A stretch of 12,069 nt of DNA from Candidatus Micrarchaeia archaeon (GTDB lineage: Archaea > Micrarchaeota > Micrarchaeia > Micrarchaeales > CABMGC01), in assembly GCA_049976845.1 (NCBI GenBank), contig JBMFHL010000019.1:1-12069 (forward strand), written 5' to 3'. Positions 1 to 7,715 of this stretch are shown one piece after another. Below the pieces are notes generated by a model. The model made no database searches. It was given only the letters and a program-made list of their open reading frames with translations, and was not told the DNA's origin. How positions within the stretch are numbered: the stretch's first letter is position 1; every line of letters begins with the position of its first letter. The position numbers and the translations under genes were made by a program.

Positions 1-1519
1 GGTACATCCCTGTTACTCCGTCTTCATTATTTGTTATTATTGCATCCCCTGTCCTTGGAGAGAACACCTGTTCGTTTACCCACATAAGGTATTTTGCTTC
101 TGCTTGTGCCTCAAGTGTCTGCGGAACATGCAAGTTCATTTCGTCTCCGTCGAAGTCTGCGCCATAAGGGTGAGTGGCGTCGAAATTTACCCTGAAGGTC
201 TTGCCAGGCATAACCCTAGCTCTGTGGGCCATTATTGAAATCCTGTGAAGCGAAGGCTGCCTGTTGAATAGGACAATATCGCCATCCATAAGCTGCCGCT
301 CTAGTATATCCCCTACAGCGATTGACTTTACTGCTTCTTCCCTTGCGGTGTCTACTATGCGGTGCCTTTTGCCATCCCTTGATATTATGCCAATCACTGT
401 TGGATACTCTGATCTTGATACAAGTTCCTTTGCTTTGCTGATATTCCATTCTGTTACATAAAATGGCACTGTAAGCTTCTTTGCTATTTCAATTGGCACG
501 CCAACCTCGTCTATGTCTATATAAGGGTCTACAGAGATTACGGTTCTTGCTGAGAAGTTCACCCTTTTGCCGCTAAGATTATATCTGAACCTTCCTTCTT
601 TACCCTTTAGCCTTTGGGCCAGTGTTTTAAGCGCTCTGCCGCTCCTGTGCCTTGCTGGCGGTATGCCAGGTGCTTCATTGTTGAAATACGTCGTAATATT
701 GTACTGCAGCAGCTCCCAGAGGTCGTCTATTATTATCTGCGGCGCTCCGGCATTTATATTCTGCTCTAGCCTCTGATTTATACGCATGATATCGACAAGC
801 TTGTGTGTAAGATCATCTTCGCTCCTCTCTCCTGATTCGAGCGTTATTGAAGGCCTCACATTTACCGGGGGAACAAGAAGGGATGTTAGTATGAGCCATT
901 CTGGTCTGCTTGTACTTGGATCTATTCCAAGCAGCTTCAAATCATCGTCACTGATTTTGCTCAGTCTTTCCCTTATCTCATCAGGCTTCAGCCTTCTATC
1001 CCCTATGTAGAAGTATGTTGGCGCCTCAAATTTTACCTTTTGCTGTACTGCACCGCAGTGCGGGCATTTCTTTATGCTTCTAAGCTTTTTCATGATCTGG
1101 TTTTTATCATTTACCTTGTCGCTTTCGCTTTCGAATATTTCATCGCTTCCGACTATTACCTCCTTGAGATCTTCGCGAACATCGCTTATCTGCTCTTCGT
1201 TGAGAAGCACCCTTCCGCATTCCTGACACGTAGACTGCAGCAGCATGTAGATTATTTTTGAGAATTCCGAGTGTATAACAGGCCTTATAAGCTCAATGTG
1301 GCCAAAGTGGCCTGGACAGATCTTAGCCCTAGCTCCGCATGTTTTGCAGACAAGCCCAGGGTCTATTACACCTAGCCTCTGATCTAGCAAACCGCCATCT
1401 ATAGGGTAGCCATCCTCGTTGTATGTATCTGGAACTGTAAGCTTGGCTACGCTGAGCCTCTTTATCTGCTCTGGTGAGAGCACACCAAATTTTATATAAT
1501 CTATCAATTCTGCTTGCAT
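1..1519 (-). CDS. rpoA1: DNA-directed RNA polymerase subunit A' (Rpo1N), 3'-truncated by the window edge (about 506 codons visible)
   Basis: Manual translation from ATG at 1519 gives MQAELIDYIKFGVLSPEQIKRLSV, Zn site CKTCG...CPGHFGH, LKGKEGRFRYNLSGKRVNFSARTV, NRQPSLHR and the catalytic loop ADFDGDEMNLHVPQ, which is in frame with the start. SD GGAGTGAT at 1524-1531 overlaps the rpoB' stop. Missing from the ORF track because there is no stop inside the window. Confidence 0.98.
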   Translation of the reverse strand, partial: MQAELIDYIKFGVLSPEQIKRLSVAKLTVPDTYNEDGYPIDGGLLDQRLGVIDPGLVCKTCGARAKICPGHFGHIELIRPVIHSEFSKIIYMLLQSTCQECGRVLLNEEQISDVREDLKEVIVGSDEIFESESDKVNDKNQIMKKLRSIKKCPHCGAVQQKVKFEAPTYFYIGDRRLKPDEIRERLSKISDDDLKLLGIDPSTSRPEWLILTSLLVPPVNVRPSITLESGERSEDDLTHKLVDIMRINQRLEQNINAGAPQIIIDDLWELLQYNITTYFNNEAPGIPPARHRSGRALKTLAQRLKGKEGRFRYNLSGKRVNFSARTVISVDPYIDIDEVGVPIEIAKKLTVPFYVTEWNISKAKELVSRSEYPTVIGIISRDGKRHRIVDTAREEAVKSIAVGDILERQLMDGDIVLFNRQPSLHRISIMAHRARVMPGKTFRVNFDATHPYGADFDGDEMNLHVPQTLEAQAEAKYLMWVNEQVFSPRTGDAIITNNEDGVTGMY

Positions 1520-1524
1520 TAATA

Positions 1525-3354
1525 TCACTCCTTCATCTTTATCTTTGGGAATATGTGCAGAGATTTTATCTCGTCAAGAAGCAACTTGAAGGCATAGCTT
1601 ATTTCCACTTGCTCTAGATTGTTGCTGCCACATATAGGGCATATGTCGATTTTCTTTATATAATCGTGGTAGCCTATATTGCCGCATTCCTTGCATATCA
1701 GCACAGTTGCCTTGTCGCTCTGCTCCAGAAGCCTCTCCTTTAGCAGGAGGCTTGCACCATATCCTACAAGTACATCCCTTTCCATCTCTCCGAATCTCAA
1801 GCCACCCTGCCTCGCTTTTCCTTCAGTTGGCTGATGGGTAAGTATCTGCACTGGACCGCGGCTCCTCACCTGCAATTTATTGCTTACCATGTGGTAGAGC
1901 CTGTTGTAATAGGAAATTCCTATGAATAGCTTAGATTTGAAAGGCTCGCCGGTTATGCCGTCATAAAGTACCTCTTCGCCATATTTTGCAAAGCCATGGC
2001 TTTCTACAATTTTTGAATACTCATTTATTCTGTCACTGCCTTTCTCGGCAAATGGCGTGCCGTCTATCTGCCTGCCATTCATTGCTGCAGCTTTTCCAGC
2101 AAGCTCCTCAAGCAAATGCCCAAAGGTAAGCCTTGAAGGTATACTGTGTGGATTAAGCAACAGATCAGGCACAATGCCGTCTTTTGTAAAAGGCATGTCT
2201 TCTTGAGGCACAAGCATTGCTATTACCCCTTTCTGACCGTGCCTGCTTGCAAATTTGTCTCCTATTTCAGGTATTCTTAAGCTTCTTATCCTCACTTTGA
2301 CGACTTTTGTTGCTCCTGTTGTTTCTGTGAAGACAACACTGTCAACTACACCATGTTCGCCTGCCTTGAGCGATGTTGAATCATCCCTTATCTTTTCTTC
2401 TAGACCTGTGGCACCAATGTTTTCTTCGAGGAATCTTGGAGGTGCGATCTTGCCAATTAATACGTCACCTTCATTTACAGGCATCTCTGGCTCTATTATA
2501 CCGTCGTCGCTCAGCTTTGAATAAGCAGATTCGCCAAGGTAGCCCTCAGCTGTTGCAGGAGGCAACTTGAATGTATCTTTTTGCCCTCCAGGATACCTTC
2601 TCTCTTCATCAGAATATGTTTTGTAAAACATGCTCCTGCCAAGGCCCCTGTCAACGGCAGCCTTGTTTACTACTATTGCGTCGGCCATATTATAGCCGTA
2701 GTATGTTGATAATGCCACTATAAAATTCTGTCCGCTTGGGTGCGTACTTATGTTCGCCATCTTGTATGGCGCCGTAGTTACAAGCGGCACTTGAGGGTAG
2801 AAAAGTATGTATGATCTGGAGTCAAATCTCAAGTTGAAATTTGTTGCATAAAGGCCTTCCCCCTGCTTAATGAAATTGGCGCTCATTGCATGCCTTGCAG
2901 CGCTGTTGTGCTCTTGGTACGGGCTTGAGCCTATTGTAAAACCGAAGATCGAATCTATATCCACTTCCAAGTGGGTTGTATCCTCTTTTATTTCGTTCTC
3001 GTAGAATGCAACAAGTGCATTTTCTTCTTCCTCTGCATCTAGATATTCTATTATGCCATGCCTCAGCAGGTAGTTGAAATCTATCTCTTTCTTCTTTACC
3101 TTTTCCAAGATGTCGCTTGTGAGCTTTGACTTGCCATTTTCTACTATTATATACGGCTTCCTCACCCTCCCTACATCTGAATTGACATGCACTGCATTTA
3201 CATTGCTAACGTATGCTACGTTTATCTCTCCGGAGATTAGCCCATTCCTCCTTGCATTCCTTATCTCTTGTGCTAGCTTCTCCCCGTCTTCAACATAGCC
3301 GATTATTCTGCCGTTGAGGTAAACATGACATTTTTCATCTAGTTTTTTTGCCAA
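1525..3354 (-). CDS. rpoB1: DNA-directed RNA polymerase subunit B' (Rpo2C)
   Basis: 609 aa with GDKFASRHGQKG, NPHSIPSR, GGLRFGEMERD and a C-terminal Zn ribbon CKEC...CPIC. TTG start preceded by SD GTGGTG. Confidence 0.98.
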   Translation of the reverse strand: MAKKLDEKCHVYLNGRIIGYVEDGEKLAQEIRNARRNGLISGEINVAYVSNVNAVHVNSDVGRVRKPYIIVENGKSKLTSDILEKVKKKEIDFNYLLRHGIIEYLDAEEEENALVAFYENEIKEDTTHLEVDIDSIFGFTIGSSPYQEHNSAARHAMSANFIKQGEGLYATNFNLRFDSRSYILFYPQVPLVTTAPYKMANISTHPSGQNFIVALSTYYGYNMADAIVVNKAAVDRGLGRSMFYKTYSDEERRYPGGQKDTFKLPPATAEGYLGESAYSKLSDDGIIEPEMPVNEGDVLIGKIAPPRFLEENIGATGLEEKIRDDSTSLKAGEHGVVDSVVFTETTGATKVVKVRIRSLRIPEIGDKFASRHGQKGVIAMLVPQEDMPFTKDGIVPDLLLNPHSIPSRLTFGHLLEELAGKAAAMNGRQIDGTPFAEKGSDRINEYSKIVESHGFAKYGEEVLYDGITGEPFKSKLFIGISYYNRLYHMVSNKLQVRSRGPVQILTHQPTEGKARQGGLRFGEMERDVLVGYGASLLLKERLLEQSDKATVLICKECGNIGYHDYIKKIDICPICGSNNLEQVEISYAFKLLLDEIKSLHIFPKIKMKE

Positions 3355-3365
3355 GCAAACACCAC

Positions 3366-4838
3366 TTAATCCTCTTTTATGCTCCCTATTTCCTTAAGTT
3401 TCTCTTCTGTAAATTTCTCGTCTGCACCTGTAGTTACCTTTGACATTATTGCAAGGTATTTGGTGAGTCCTACCTCCTGCCCTTCAGGGGATTCTGAGGG
3501 GCAGATCTTACCCCACTGCGTACCATGAACATCCCTTGCCCTAAAGTGTGGGTGCTTCTTCGCAAGAGGCGATTTTATACGCCTGAGATGCGCATACGTG
3601 CTCACCATATTTGTCCTGTCAAGCACTTGGGAAACGCCAGTCTGGCCTGCAACCCATGTGCCAGTTCCCATTGCATAAAGTATTTTTTCTGTAAGCGTGT
3701 CAGGGCTTATTATTGTCTGTATGCTCATCCTTCTGCCCCTTGCGCTTGTTCTTTCTATTTGATATTTGACATCTTTTACGAAGAACTTGAATGCGTATGC
3801 AAAGAGCTCCTCCATCAGCTCGCCAGCAAGCTTTATCCTCTTGTTTGCATAATGGTCTTTGTCGTCTTGCTTCAGGTATTTGTTTGCTACGAGCGATGCC
3901 CTCTTTGTTGCTTCTATTAAGTATTTCGCCTTTGCCTGCCTGTCCTCTAGGGTTATTCCTATGTGAGGCAATAGGTATGTGTCTATCTGCGTTTCGGCTC
4001 TCTTCTTCTGATATTCTTGGGCCTGGCCTGGTGCAGAATTCTTTCCTATTTCAAGCATTGCTTCGGATGGTCCAAGCTCTTTCGCATTGCTTATTTCTAT
4101 GTTATATAGTATATCATTTTTTACAACAGGCATTGATTCTACCGCCTTCAATATTTCTTGCACTGTCATGCCCAAAGCCCTTAAAAGCAGTATCAGATCT
4201 ATGTTCTTCGGGGCAGTAGGGAAGTTTACGTTAAATAAACCTTTTTGGTTCCTTGTGACAGCGCAACGCGCCCTAAAGCCGCTAGAAGTAGAAAATACTT
4301 TGCTTGTTACTTCAGCGCCGCCTTTCTCCTTTGTTGTCATTATTCTGTTTGGCGCAAGATCTTCTAATCCTATTAGCACTCTCTCTGTGCCTTTTATTAT
4401 GAAATAACCTCCAGGATCATTAGGATCCTCTCCGCTCTTGAGGAGTTGGCCCTTTGGCATGTTTCTCATGTGACAGATGTTGCTCCTCAGCATTATCGGA
4501 AGCTCGCCTATAAACACTTCGCCATAAGAAGCCTGCTTTTCTATGCCTCTTATCACTGGCACAAATTCGAGAAATATTGGCGCTGCATAAGTTAGATTCC
4601 TCAATCTTGCCTCATTCGGCATTATGTTCCTTCTTGAGCTGTCAGCCTCTATTATTGAAGGCTTGTCAAGCCTGAGCTTGCCCAGCTTTAGGGAAAAATC
4701 TTCCACATTTGGCTGTATTATACCTTGCTTTGCTATCACGCGCTGGATTCCAAAATCTAGGAAACGGTTGAAGCTTTCTATCTGCTGCTGCACCAGAGAA
4801 ACTGAGCTCAAGTACGATTCAAGTAGTTCATTAGCCAT
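3366..4838 (-). CDS. rpoB2: DNA-directed RNA polymerase subunit B'' (Rpo2N)
   Basis: Motifs EARLRNLTYAAP, DPGGYFIIKGTERV, DDKDHYANKR, TGVSQVLDR and WGKICPSESPEG. ATG at 4838 (MANELL) is preferred over GTG at 4847 because GTGGT at 4843-4847 then serves as its SD. Confidence 0.97.
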   Translation of the reverse strand: MANELLESYLSSVSLVQQQIESFNRFLDFGIQRVIAKQGIIQPNVEDFSLKLGKLRLDKPSIIEADSSRRNIMPNEARLRNLTYAAPIFLEFVPVIRGIEKQASYGEVFIGELPIMLRSNICHMRNMPKGQLLKSGEDPNDPGGYFIIKGTERVLIGLEDLAPNRIMTTKEKGGAEVTSKVFSTSSGFRARCAVTRNQKGLFNVNFPTAPKNIDLILLLRALGMTVQEILKAVESMPVVKNDILYNIEISNAKELGPSEAMLEIGKNSAPGQAQEYQKKRAETQIDTYLLPHIGITLEDRQAKAKYLIEATKRASLVANKYLKQDDKDHYANKRIKLAGELMEELFAYAFKFFVKDVKYQIERTSARGRRMSIQTIISPDTLTEKILYAMGTGTWVAGQTGVSQVLDRTNMVSTYAHLRRIKSPLAKKHPHFRARDVHGTQWGKICPSESPEGQEVGLTKYLAIMSKVTTGADEKFTEEKLKEIGSIKED

Positions 4839-4846
4839 AAAGACCA

Positions 4847-5089
4847 CTAACCTTTTACGACAAGTCTGTAGTATGCATACTTAGTTTTTGACTGGTAAGG
4901 TGGGTCTTCTCTATATATCCTCAATATCTGTCCGGATTTTGCCCCGAGCTTTTTTGCTTGCGGATCACTCTCGAATATCTTCGGCAATTCCTCCTTTGTG
5001 ATCTTCAGGGCTTCTAAAACCTTCTTGGTCTCCGCATCAGTGAGTATCTCATGCACCGGGACTAATAAATGTTCTCTCTTTGCTACCAA
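4847..5089 (-). CDS. rpoH: DNA-directed RNA polymerase subunit H (Rpo5)
   Basis: 80 aa with HLLVPVHEIL, LPKIFESDP and YYRLVV. Sits in the canonical position before rpoB. TTG start with SD AGGTGG 5 nt upstream. Confidence 0.97.
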   Translation of the reverse strand: MVAKREHLLVPVHEILTDAETKKVLEALKITKEELPKIFESDPQAKKLGAKSGQILRIYREDPPYQSKTKYAYYRLVVKG

Positions 5090-6136: not shown

Positions 6137-7117
6137 ATGCTTGTTATTGGGATAGAAAGCAGCGCACATACGTTTGGTGTAGGCATAGTGAAGGATGGAG
6201 AGATTATAGCAAATGAGAAAAGAACTTATGATGTAGGCAGTGGCGGCATGATACCGGCGAAGGTTGCAGAGTTCCATATTGAGAACGCCAATGAAATTAT
6301 AGGAAGGGCAATTAAAAAAGCAGGCATTGAAATCAATGAGATTGAAGGAGTAGGTTACACAAAAGGCCCTGGATTGGGCCCCTGCCTGCAGGTTGGCGAA
6401 CTTGCAGCTAAGACAATTGCAGAGAGGCTTGATATTGATATAGTGCCAGTTAACCACGGGGTTGCTCATGTTGAAATAGCTAAACATTATGCAAAACTGA
6501 AAGACCCTGTTGCACTTTATGTAAGCGGGGGAAACTCACAGATACTTAAAATTGAAGAGAACCCTTTCAAGCACTACCGTGTACTTGGAGAGACGTTGGA
6601 CATAGGCATTGGAAACATGCTTGACACATTCGCAAGAAGAGTCGGGCTTATGCCCGCATGGGGCTCAAGTGTAGCAAAAGCTGCGATTGGCGGAAGGTAC
6701 CTTGAACTGCCATATACTGTCAAAGGTATGGATTTTTCCTTTACGGGCTTGCTAACAAGATCAATAGAACTTGCGCAGGAGAAGAGAATTGGACTTAAAG
6801 ATTTGTGTTATTCTTTGCAAGAGACAGCTTTCAGTATGGTATGCGAAGCTACTGAGAGGGCGGTACTTCTCACCAAAAGCAAGGAGCTTTGCGTTTGTGG
6901 AGGGGTGGCTCAGAGTGATAGATTAAAAGAAATGCTCGCAATCATCGCTAAGGAGCATCACATCAAGTTTGGCTTTGCCCCAAATGAATTCAACGCGGAT
7001 AATGGGGGTATGATTGCGTTCGTGGCTGAAGGCTTACTTAAAAAAGGTTATAAAGAAAGTGTGCCAAATTGCGGCATAGAGCAGAGGTATAGAATTGACA
7101 GGGCAATACTCGCATGA
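6137..7117 (+). CDS. kae1: KEOPS complex tRNA N6-threonylcarbamoyltransferase Kae1
   Basis: 326 aa with GIESSAHTFGVG, GPGLGPCL, metal-binding HGVAH, LYVSGGNSQ, GETLDIGIGN, ELPYTVKGMDFSF and DNGGMIA. Confidence 0.97.
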   Translation: MLVIGIESSAHTFGVGIVKDGEIIANEKRTYDVGSGGMIPAKVAEFHIENANEIIGRAIKKAGIEINEIEGVGYTKGPGLGPCLQVGELAAKTIAERLDIDIVPVNHGVAHVEIAKHYAKLKDPVALYVSGGNSQILKIEENPFKHYRVLGETLDIGIGNMLDTFARRVGLMPAWGSSVAKAAIGGRYLELPYTVKGMDFSFTGLLTRSIELAQEKRIGLKDLCYSLQETAFSMVCEATERAVLLTKSKELCVCGGVAQSDRLKEMLAIIAKEHHIKFGFAPNEFNADNGGMIAFVAEGLLKKGYKESVPNCGIEQRYRIDRAILA

Positions 7118-7124
7118 TGGTAAA

Positions 7125-7715
7125 ATGATTATAGATGAAGGGGCAGAAGCAAAGATATACGAAGAAAGGGTTTTTGGAGAAAGGGTAATAGTCAAATTTA
7201 GGCTAAAGAAGAGATATAGAGAAAAGGAGCTTGATGAATCGATAAGATTGAGCAGGACCAGAATAGAAGCAAAGATGCTTTACAAAGCGCAGCTTGCAGG
7301 AATAGATTCGCCACGGCTTATTGCCCTAGGGAAATACAGTATATACATGAGCTATCTAAAAGGCAAACTGCTTAGAGACTGCAAAGCCACAGGCGCATTG
7401 CCAGAGAGGATTGGCAGCATGCTTGCAAGAATGCACAATGCAGATATCTCCCATGGAGATTTTACTACTGCAAATATAATGGTAATTGGCGGAAGGCCTT
7501 TTGTAATAGATTTCGGACTTGCACATATGACTAAGAGCATAGAAGACAAAGCGATAGACTTGCTGCTAATAAAGAGATCTGCAGGGAACAGTTTTTACAA
7601 GCGGCTTGAGCTTGCATACATGAGCAAGGCTAAGCAAGGCAAGGAAATAACAAGAAGGCTTGCAGACATAGAAAAGAGGGGAAGGTACCAAATACGTACT
7701 ATAGCCCCAGTATGA
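7125..7715 (+). CDS. bud32: KEOPS complex kinase/ATPase Bud32
   Basis: Motifs GAEA, IVKFR, RTRIEAK, HGDFTTAN, IDFGL and C-terminal IEKRGRY. ATG at 7125, 7 nt after the kae1 stop, is more plausible than TTG at 7095. Confidence 0.95.
   Translation: MIIDEGAEAKIYEERVFGERVIVKFRLKKRYREKELDESIRLSRTRIEAKMLYKAQLAGIDSPRLIALGKYSIYMSYLKGKLLRDCKATGALPERIGSMLARMHNADISHGDFTTANIMVIGGRPFVIDFGLAHMTKSIEDKAIDLLLIKRSAGNSFYKRLELAYMSKAKQGKEITRRLADIEKRGRYQIRTIAPV

Follow-up and report, generated by a model that had tools for sequence, protein, structure and literature searches.

In the excerpts of the literature cited here and below, the sequence NADFDGD of the RNA polymerase (RNAP) catalytic loop is called universally conserved (PMC13198411) or nearly invariant, with plant Pol IV having lost it and Pol V retaining only ADFDGD (PMC2605557). 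Its asparagine contacts the ribose hydroxyls of the nucleoside triphosphate (NTP) (PMC7862312, PMC7619134, PMC3325174), and in Pol II the contact of Asn479 and Gln1078 with the 2'-OH is mediated by water (PMC7619134). Here we describe an archaeal gene in which this asparagine is replaced by glycine. The gene, rpoA', which encodes Rpo1N, is found in a stretch of 12,069 nucleotides, hereafter the window, that forms one end of contig JBMFHL010000019.1 (C19) of the Candidatus Micrarchaeia archaeon assembly GCA_049976845.1 (G000; 731 kb in 52 contigs, approximately 90% complete). The replacement is a genuine, genus-fixed Asn to Gly change in the sole housekeeping RNAP of a Micrarchaeota (DPANN) genome of about 0.73 Mb. 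In our judgement it probably leaves a working enzyme, with weaker NTP binding or slower elongation, and is tolerated by a permissive active site.

Among the closest described counterparts are laboratory mutants in which the same residue has been exchanged for serine, also a smaller side chain; the enzymes are active and the yeast strain is viable. In E. coli, beta' N458S lowers the selectivity for ribonucleotides (rNTPs) over 2'-deoxynucleotides (2'-dNTPs) at binding only approximately 4-fold, and the main determinant of selectivity is R425, the Arg of the motif NRQPSLHR (PMC7862312). In yeast, rpb1-N479S lowers rNTP affinity (PMC5737373) and its effects are mainly on NTP affinity and elongation rate (PMC5737373, PMC3325174). 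An N479S/N1082S double mutant is viable, and N479, Q1078 and N1082 have been shown to be interdependent (PMC3325174). Both Pol IV and V carry substitutions at the same site (PMC5737373). These sources agree with the first-pass annotation of the window, which had stated that the Asn contacts the NTP sugar and that plant Pol IV/V lack it (PMC7862312, PMC5737373, PMC2605557). Unlike these serine forms, which were engineered or selected in otherwise canonical enzymes, the glycine described here is the wild type of whole lineages.

The catalytic loop and its gene

The features of rpoA' that bear on the replacement are as follows.

2..1528, minus strand: rpoA' (Rpo1N), truncated where the contig ends, with its first 509 codons present (Pfam RNA_pol_Rpb1_1, E 7.6e-93; RNA_pol_Rpb1_2, E 5.5e-63)
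134..202, minus strand: catalytic loop and preceding strand, TFRVNFDATHPYGADFDGDEMN (translation)
143..157, minus strand: DFDGD, the metal-A aspartate triad, intact (translation)
161..163, minus strand: GGC (Gly), the codon that corresponds to E. coli beta' N458 and yeast Rpb1 N479 (translation, phmmer alignment)
242..265, minus strand: NRQPSLHR, intact, with the Arg that corresponds to beta' R425 and Rpb1 R446 (translation; role as main 2'-OH sensor from PMC7862312)

The open frame (translation ...NRQPSLHRISIMAHRARVMPGKTFRVNFDATHPYGADFDGDEMNLHVPQ...; longer excerpt around the catalytic loop ...NRQPSLHRISIMAHRARVMPGKTFRVNFDATHPYGADFDGDEMN...) has the architecture of Rpb1 domains 1 and 2, with Pfam scores well over the cut-offs (PF04997, 311.7 bits; PF00623, 212.6 bits). 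Its catalytic-loop stretch reads ...HPYGADFDGDEMN. The plus strand at 161-163 is gcc, giving GGC (Gly) on the coding strand between Tyr (164-166) and Ala (158-160), and the minus strand of 137-166 reads TAT GGC GCA GAC TTC GAC GGA GAC GAA ATG. The Gly is residue 453 if the ATG at 1517-1519 is taken as the start and residue 456 from the GTG at 1526-1528. The closest relative of solved structure is Rpo1N of Pyrococcus furiosus (PDB 8cro chain A; residues 7-509 aligned, E 2e-198), and phmmer places the Gly opposite the Asn of its PYNADFDGDEMN. The two proteins are alike in their Pfam domains, in NRQPSLHR and DFDGDEMN and in their operon; they differ in that the P. furiosus protein has PYNADFDGD where PYGADFDGD stands here, and the present polymerase also has TQMIIGSFH in its trigger loop and Ala-Asp rather than Glu-Asp at the metal-B site. 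The reading of codon 453 as Gly, and of NRQPSLHR and the three Mg-binding Asp as intact, with which the first-pass annotation had begun, is thus confirmed. Its further claim that the preceding residues are remodelled holds in part: the change of Cys to Asp at -6 is specific to the genus, but the family background already reads N[YF]C[AT]TxPY, and the His at -3 is also present in one Asn-type relative (L009).

A change from Asn to Gly takes two base changes. The glycine is present in all seven genomes of the genus (g1; G000-G006), all of which read YGADFDGD and in which the residue is encoded by GGC, GGT or GGA. The seven assemblies and three synonymous codons bear out the earlier view that a single sequencing error was unlikely, and the form is fixed in the genus. 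Only one public read run was found. It contained 5% of the sampled words, and 38 of 40 contigs were less than 90% alike to the window; the run therefore holds relatives rather than the source organism and is uninformative on codon 161-163.

A single match to rpoA' was found in the genome of the window and in each of the six congeners and, as these genomes are 79-95% complete, the evidence for a single copy is strong rather than absolute. Between the genomes of the genus the proportion of synonymous differences (pS) is approximately 0.7 (saturated; 0.30 in the closest pair) and that of nonsynonymous differences (pN) 0.01-0.11. The ratio of nonsynonymous to synonymous rates (dN/dS) could be computed for 15 of the 21 pairs, in which it ranges over 0.016-0.046. 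The gene is under strong purifying selection. In a tree of RpoA' the stem branch of the genus measures 0.12 changes per site, which is not long relative to other branches. The gene belongs to a canonical operon with a split rpoB, in the order rpoH-rpoB''-rpoB'-rpoA'.

1525..3354, minus strand: rpoB', the C-terminal half of Rpo2 (Pfam Rpb2 domains 4-7; PDB alignment)
3366..4847, minus strand: rpoB'', the N-terminal half of Rpo2 (Pfam Rpb2 domains 1-3)
4847..5089, minus strand: rpoH, with which the operon begins (Rpb5 C-terminal domain; Pfam RNA_pol_Rpb5_C, E 1.9e-21)

Because it is the only rpoA' of its genome and lies in this operon, the gene encodes the housekeeping polymerase. Another contig of the genome, C8, opens with the remainder of rpoA' together with rpoA'' (locus L113). 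Downstream, on the opposite strand, Pfam matches identify Kae1/TsaD, a Bud32-like kinase and cysteinyl-tRNA synthetase among other genes. The Kae1/TsaD gene (6137-7117, plus strand) overlaps that of the small RIO/Bud32-like kinase (7095-7715, plus strand) by approximately 20 bases; as separate genes, Kae1 and Bud32 form here the usual archaeal pair.

Distribution and history of the glycine form

The Micrarchaeota order to which the window belongs was surveyed with a degenerate pattern in which the target codon was left free. This matched 194 of 248 genomes and, as tallied from the listed rows, Asn (AAY) was found in 175, Gly (GGN) in 19 and any other codon in none. The 54 genomes that did not match include other motif variants, for instance NADYDGD and NGDFDGD, and some presumably lack the gene through incomplete assembly. 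Two Asn-type genomes with the trigger-loop Arg (G038 and G054, flagged as unpublished) are inside these tallies, and no conclusion rests on them. The Gly-type genomes include all seven of g1, G139 and G140 of g45, and G216 and G218 of g57. Other genera are mixed: Gly is found in G023 of g18 (Asn in G042 and G043), in G068 and G069 of g4 (Asn in its other members), in G141 and G142 of g46 (Asn in G143), in G156 of g21 (Asn in five others) and in G035 and G221 of g30 (Asn in G219 and G220). On a tree of 50 RpoA' sequences (30 loci and 20 regions picked as Gly-type or close kin), parsimony requires at least nine changes of the catalytic-loop state.

Several side observations were made on the genes of these relatives. 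Among DPANN relatives the motif itself varies, with NADYDGD in L020 and L023 (two genera of the order) and NGDFDGD in L029. The rpoA' open frame extends to 1194 codons in L008 (G019), where the trigger loop lies in the same frame, and to 1182 in G025, and in both genomes rpoA' and rpoA'' appear to be fused. Single in-frame stops inside the rpoA' match of G033 and G039 (TGA) and of G026 (TAG) could be errors, recoding events or signs of a split gene.

Within g30 the history of the allele can be followed more closely. In the tree of full-length RpoA' each Gly species is paired with an Asn species, G035 with G220 and G221 with G219, and a topology in which the Gly species are held together is rejected (approximately unbiased test, p-AU 2e-5; the group was named after the first tree had been seen). 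Of the informative nucleotide sites over the whole gene, 111 agree with the tree and 31 unite the two Gly species. In the interval from -55 to +77 nucleotides around the codon, five sites group the Gly species, besides the two of the codon itself, and two follow the tree; this interval was chosen after inspection of the data and is therefore only a hint. Since the sites that flank the codon group the Gly species despite the tree, a second double mutation is no more likely than recombination, and two independent double mutations within the genus were set aside as the explanation. These site patterns suggest that short-tract recombination, and not a second origin, may account for the Gly allele in both species.

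The variant is not unique to the genome of the window. A worldwide scan of 185,579 species, each represented by a single genome, for exact YGADFDGD[EQ]M returned 82 stretches, which by sequence type are 64 archaeal, mostly DPANN, and 18 bacterial (with DGDQM); as the remainder of the motif had to match exactly this is a lower bound, and the numbers are raw counts without denominators for each phylum. At 70% identity the 82 stretches fall into 27 clusters. The bacterial stretches comprise one cluster of 17 with one further sequence beside it, a group that resembles the Candidate Phyla Radiation (CPR) and is mostly labelled Woykebacteria and other Patescibacteria. Most of the archaeal records are labelled Woesearchaeota, Micrarchaeota, Nanoarchaeota/Nanobdellota, Pacearchaeota or Parvarchaeota; five Gly records with euryarchaeal labels form a cluster of their own. 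Some labels (Gammaproteobacteria, Nitrososphaerales and two 'Nanoarchaeia') conflict with the cluster of their own sequence, and public records that share the motif context of the window are labelled Micrarchaeota or Microcaldota. The first-pass annotation had held that departures from the Asn are known mainly from specialised enzymes; Pol IV/V are indeed without it, and Gly recurs in DPANN archaea and in one CPR-like clade.

Other residues are found at the site much less often. In a sample of a Woesearchaeota/Pacearchaeota (Woese/Pace)-type family, 102 of 141 genomes were matched, with Asn in 97, Gly in four and Ala, as YAADFDGD, in one (G393). A scan of a metagenome collection for the Ser (AGY) form YSADFDGD gave four stretches (L141-L144), of which one is a Woese/Pace-type DPANN rpoA', one is eukaryote- or virus-like and two are very divergent; the Ser form is a possible intermediate between Asn and Gly. 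In the lineages sampled the Asn is thus replaced often by Gly, once by Ala and very rarely by Ser. As far as these sequences indicate, small residues are used in nature at this site and one-step intermediates are rare or absent where sampled. It was also observed that the largest Gly-type Woese/Pace cluster (cluster 6, with L031, L033, L037 and others) has NRHPSLHR, a change of Gln to His beside the ribose-sensing Arg.

No occurrence of the string 'GADFDGD', nor of 'NADFDGD' together with 'DPANN', was found in the literature searched, and none of the 31 papers containing 'NADFDGD' has a title or abstract opening that points to a natural variant of this kind.

The trigger loop and the metal-B site

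Two further parts of the active site depart from the usual sequence in the genus.

L113:1108-1146 (contig C8 of the same genome): trigger loop, GEPGTQMIIGSFH, in rpoA'' (translation)
2680..2685, minus strand: metal-B site Ala-Asp (GYNMADA) in place of Glu-Asp, with the Ala codon GCC at 2683-2685 (aligned to P. furiosus Rpo2 GYNMEDA)

The trigger loop reads TQMII[G/S]SFH in all seven genomes of the genus, with Gly in three and Ser in four at the position of the Arg, and its Gln and His are intact. The typical loop of the family, TQM[IV]LR[STA]FH, was found in about 90 of the 105 genomes that matched the trigger-loop pattern (of 118). By a tally of the rows these 105 have Arg in approximately 90, Lys in five and the Gly and Ser of the genus; the exceptions outside the genus are two Gly (G060, G065) and one Gln (G070). 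In the second family of the order Gly (G039, G216, G218, G227), Gln (G143), Glu (G213-G215) and Lys are also found at this position. The change of the preceding Leu to Ile is found only in g1, with Leu in 41 of 41 other sequences. The trigger-loop residues that have changed in the genus are those that act with the Asn in yeast genetics, the Leu lying at yeast L1081/E. coli M932 and the Arg at yeast N1082/E. coli R933 by published equivalences (PMC3325174). The yeast N479S/N1082S strain, which is viable, has a natural parallel in the double change of the genus. Loss of the catalytic-loop Asn is accompanied by loss of the trigger-loop Arg in g1, g57 and the euryarchaeal-like group (G252: TQMTLSTFH), and in some further Gly-type lineages the Arg position is taken by Asn, Asp or Lys.

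At the metal-B site (examined over positions 2669-2697 of the window) the Asp is kept and the Glu is replaced by Ala. In 29 relatives from the order the Glu position has Ala in 16, Lys in six, Ser in three, Gln in two, Gly in one and Glu in one, and of the 81 genomes that matched in a phylum sample of 141, 78 lack the Glu and only three have it. From these alignments the loss of the Glu looks like a phylum-wide trait of the Micrarchaeota. A literature search on the active site and trigger loop of DPANN RNAPs, which was not aimed at metal-B, found nothing on this site.

Consequences for the enzyme and significance

By analogy with N458S, N479S and the contact in Pol II, the enzyme would still make RNA and still reject dNTPs, mainly by means of the Arg. 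It would lack one of the contacts that anchor the NTP ribose and the closing of the trigger loop, probably with weaker NTP binding and slower elongation as the result, and the loss of sugar selectivity should be at most a few-fold. An ordered water may take the place of the Asn amide, which would fit replacement only by very small residues. The change is probably tolerated because the active site of the phylum is already permissive, with the metal-B Glu nearly always absent and, in the genus, the trigger-loop Leu changed to Ile and the Arg to Gly or Ser. The swap appears to have arisen or spread many times in ultra-small and presumably slow-growing DPANN and CPR organisms, and this recurrence would fit tolerance under slow growth in small populations. 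Of the proposal in the first-pass annotation of an apparently housekeeping RNAP with altered substrate selectivity or fidelity, the housekeeping part is upheld by the single copy and the operon; as to selectivity, the approximately 4-fold effect of N458S and the intact main Arg would point to a small change at most.

A number of points weigh against this account. The trigger-loop Arg is kept in several Gly-type genomes, namely G068, G069, those of g45, two of g46, two of g30 and both CPR genomes checked. In an independent-pairs test on the tree, Gly in the catalytic loop and loss of the trigger-loop Arg were not directionally associated (seven pairs, median p 1; the trigger loop changed in the same way in approximately 1.5-1.9 and in the other way in approximately 1.4-2.4), so that 'compensation' by the trigger loop is unsupported. 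In the Woese/Pace-type family, moreover, the trigger-loop position has Asn, Arg, Ser or Asp whatever the state of the catalytic loop, and a general coupling of the two changes was dropped after these two results. L1081I is inviable in yeast Pol II (PMC3325174), and the transfer of conclusions between enzymes is therefore unsafe; the trigger loop shows widespread epistasis with the enzyme around it (PMC12391331). The functional consequences set out above are predicted by analogy with distantly related enzymes bearing Ser, a substitution that takes away less than Gly does. Finally, that only Asn and Gly are seen, and neither Ser nor Asp, would be just as consistent with selection for Gly as with mere tolerance of it. 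From the comparative evidence we conclude that the catalytic-loop, trigger-loop and metal-B positions are all unusually labile in DPANN polymerases, rather than that one compensates for another.

The restriction to Asn and Gly is one argument for an alternative that we regard as unlikely, in which the change is adaptive and Gly has been selected for the handling of sugar-modified or scarce nucleotides. Possible reasons would be nucleotide pools scavenged from a host or a lower sensitivity to chain-terminating analogues modified at the 3' or 2' position. The residue does contact the ribose hydroxyls, but N458S shifts selectivity only few-fold (PMC7862312). The 194 matched genomes of the order have only Asn or Gly, and the single-step Ser (AGY) and Asp (GAY) were never seen among them, a pattern that could also result if small populations crossed a fitness valley by drift. 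The alternation of Gly and Asn between sister species of g30, with its rejected grouping (itself named after the first tree), and the local excess of Gly-grouping sites, suggestive of an allele that moves by recombination, are in keeping with selection, but the interval around the codon was defined with the data in view.

A broader proposal, for which we see rather little probability, is that DPANN archaea and one CPR clade have an alternative nucleotide pocket in which the ribose would be read through water and the Arg alone, and in which Asn/Gly would be a selectable switch that recombines in short tracts. Such a pocket would lack the Asn, often the trigger-loop Arg and, in Micrarchaeota, the metal-B Glu. 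If this were true the switch would alter sensitivity to sugar-modified nucleotides or tune the enzyme to scavenged pools.

It is highly improbable that the gene encodes a specialised second polymerase, of the plant Pol IV/V or viral type, or a decaying copy. The joint alteration of several 'invariant' residues (Asn of the catalytic loop, Arg and Leu of the trigger loop, Glu of the metal-B site) might be expected of such a gene, and Pol IV/V (NRPD1, NRPE1) likewise have no Asn before DFDGD and take dNTPs more readily than Pol II (PMC2605557, PMC5737373). The plant enzymes are, however, extra, non-essential paralogues beside Pol I-III with many diverged motifs, whereas this is the sole cellular polymerase, with one rpoA' match in each of the seven genomes of the genus, a canonical operon with rpoH and split rpoB, a dN/dS of 0.016-0.046 and a stem branch that is not long. 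The chance of a sequencing or assembly artefact at 161-163 is practically negligible: the contig does end inside rpoA', at window position 1, and the one read run located holds relatives only, but seven independently assembled genomes share the Gly in three different codons, the same motif is present in a further 82 public stretches and two base changes would be required.

The Gly-type polymerases are long-established counterparts, in nature, of the yeast and E. coli mutants through which ribose recognition was defined. The sequence sets could be used to apportion ribose recognition between Arg and water, to follow epistasis between the catalytic loop, trigger loop and metal-B site, and to look into slower or less selective polymerases in ultra-small symbionts. 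Motif checks that require NADFDGD or the Glu-Asp pair would wrongly flag such genes as defective. A residue that textbooks treat as universal is dispensable in nature in these lineages, the Asn having been replaced repeatedly in their only polymerase, and alongside other 'invariant' residues of the nucleotide pocket.

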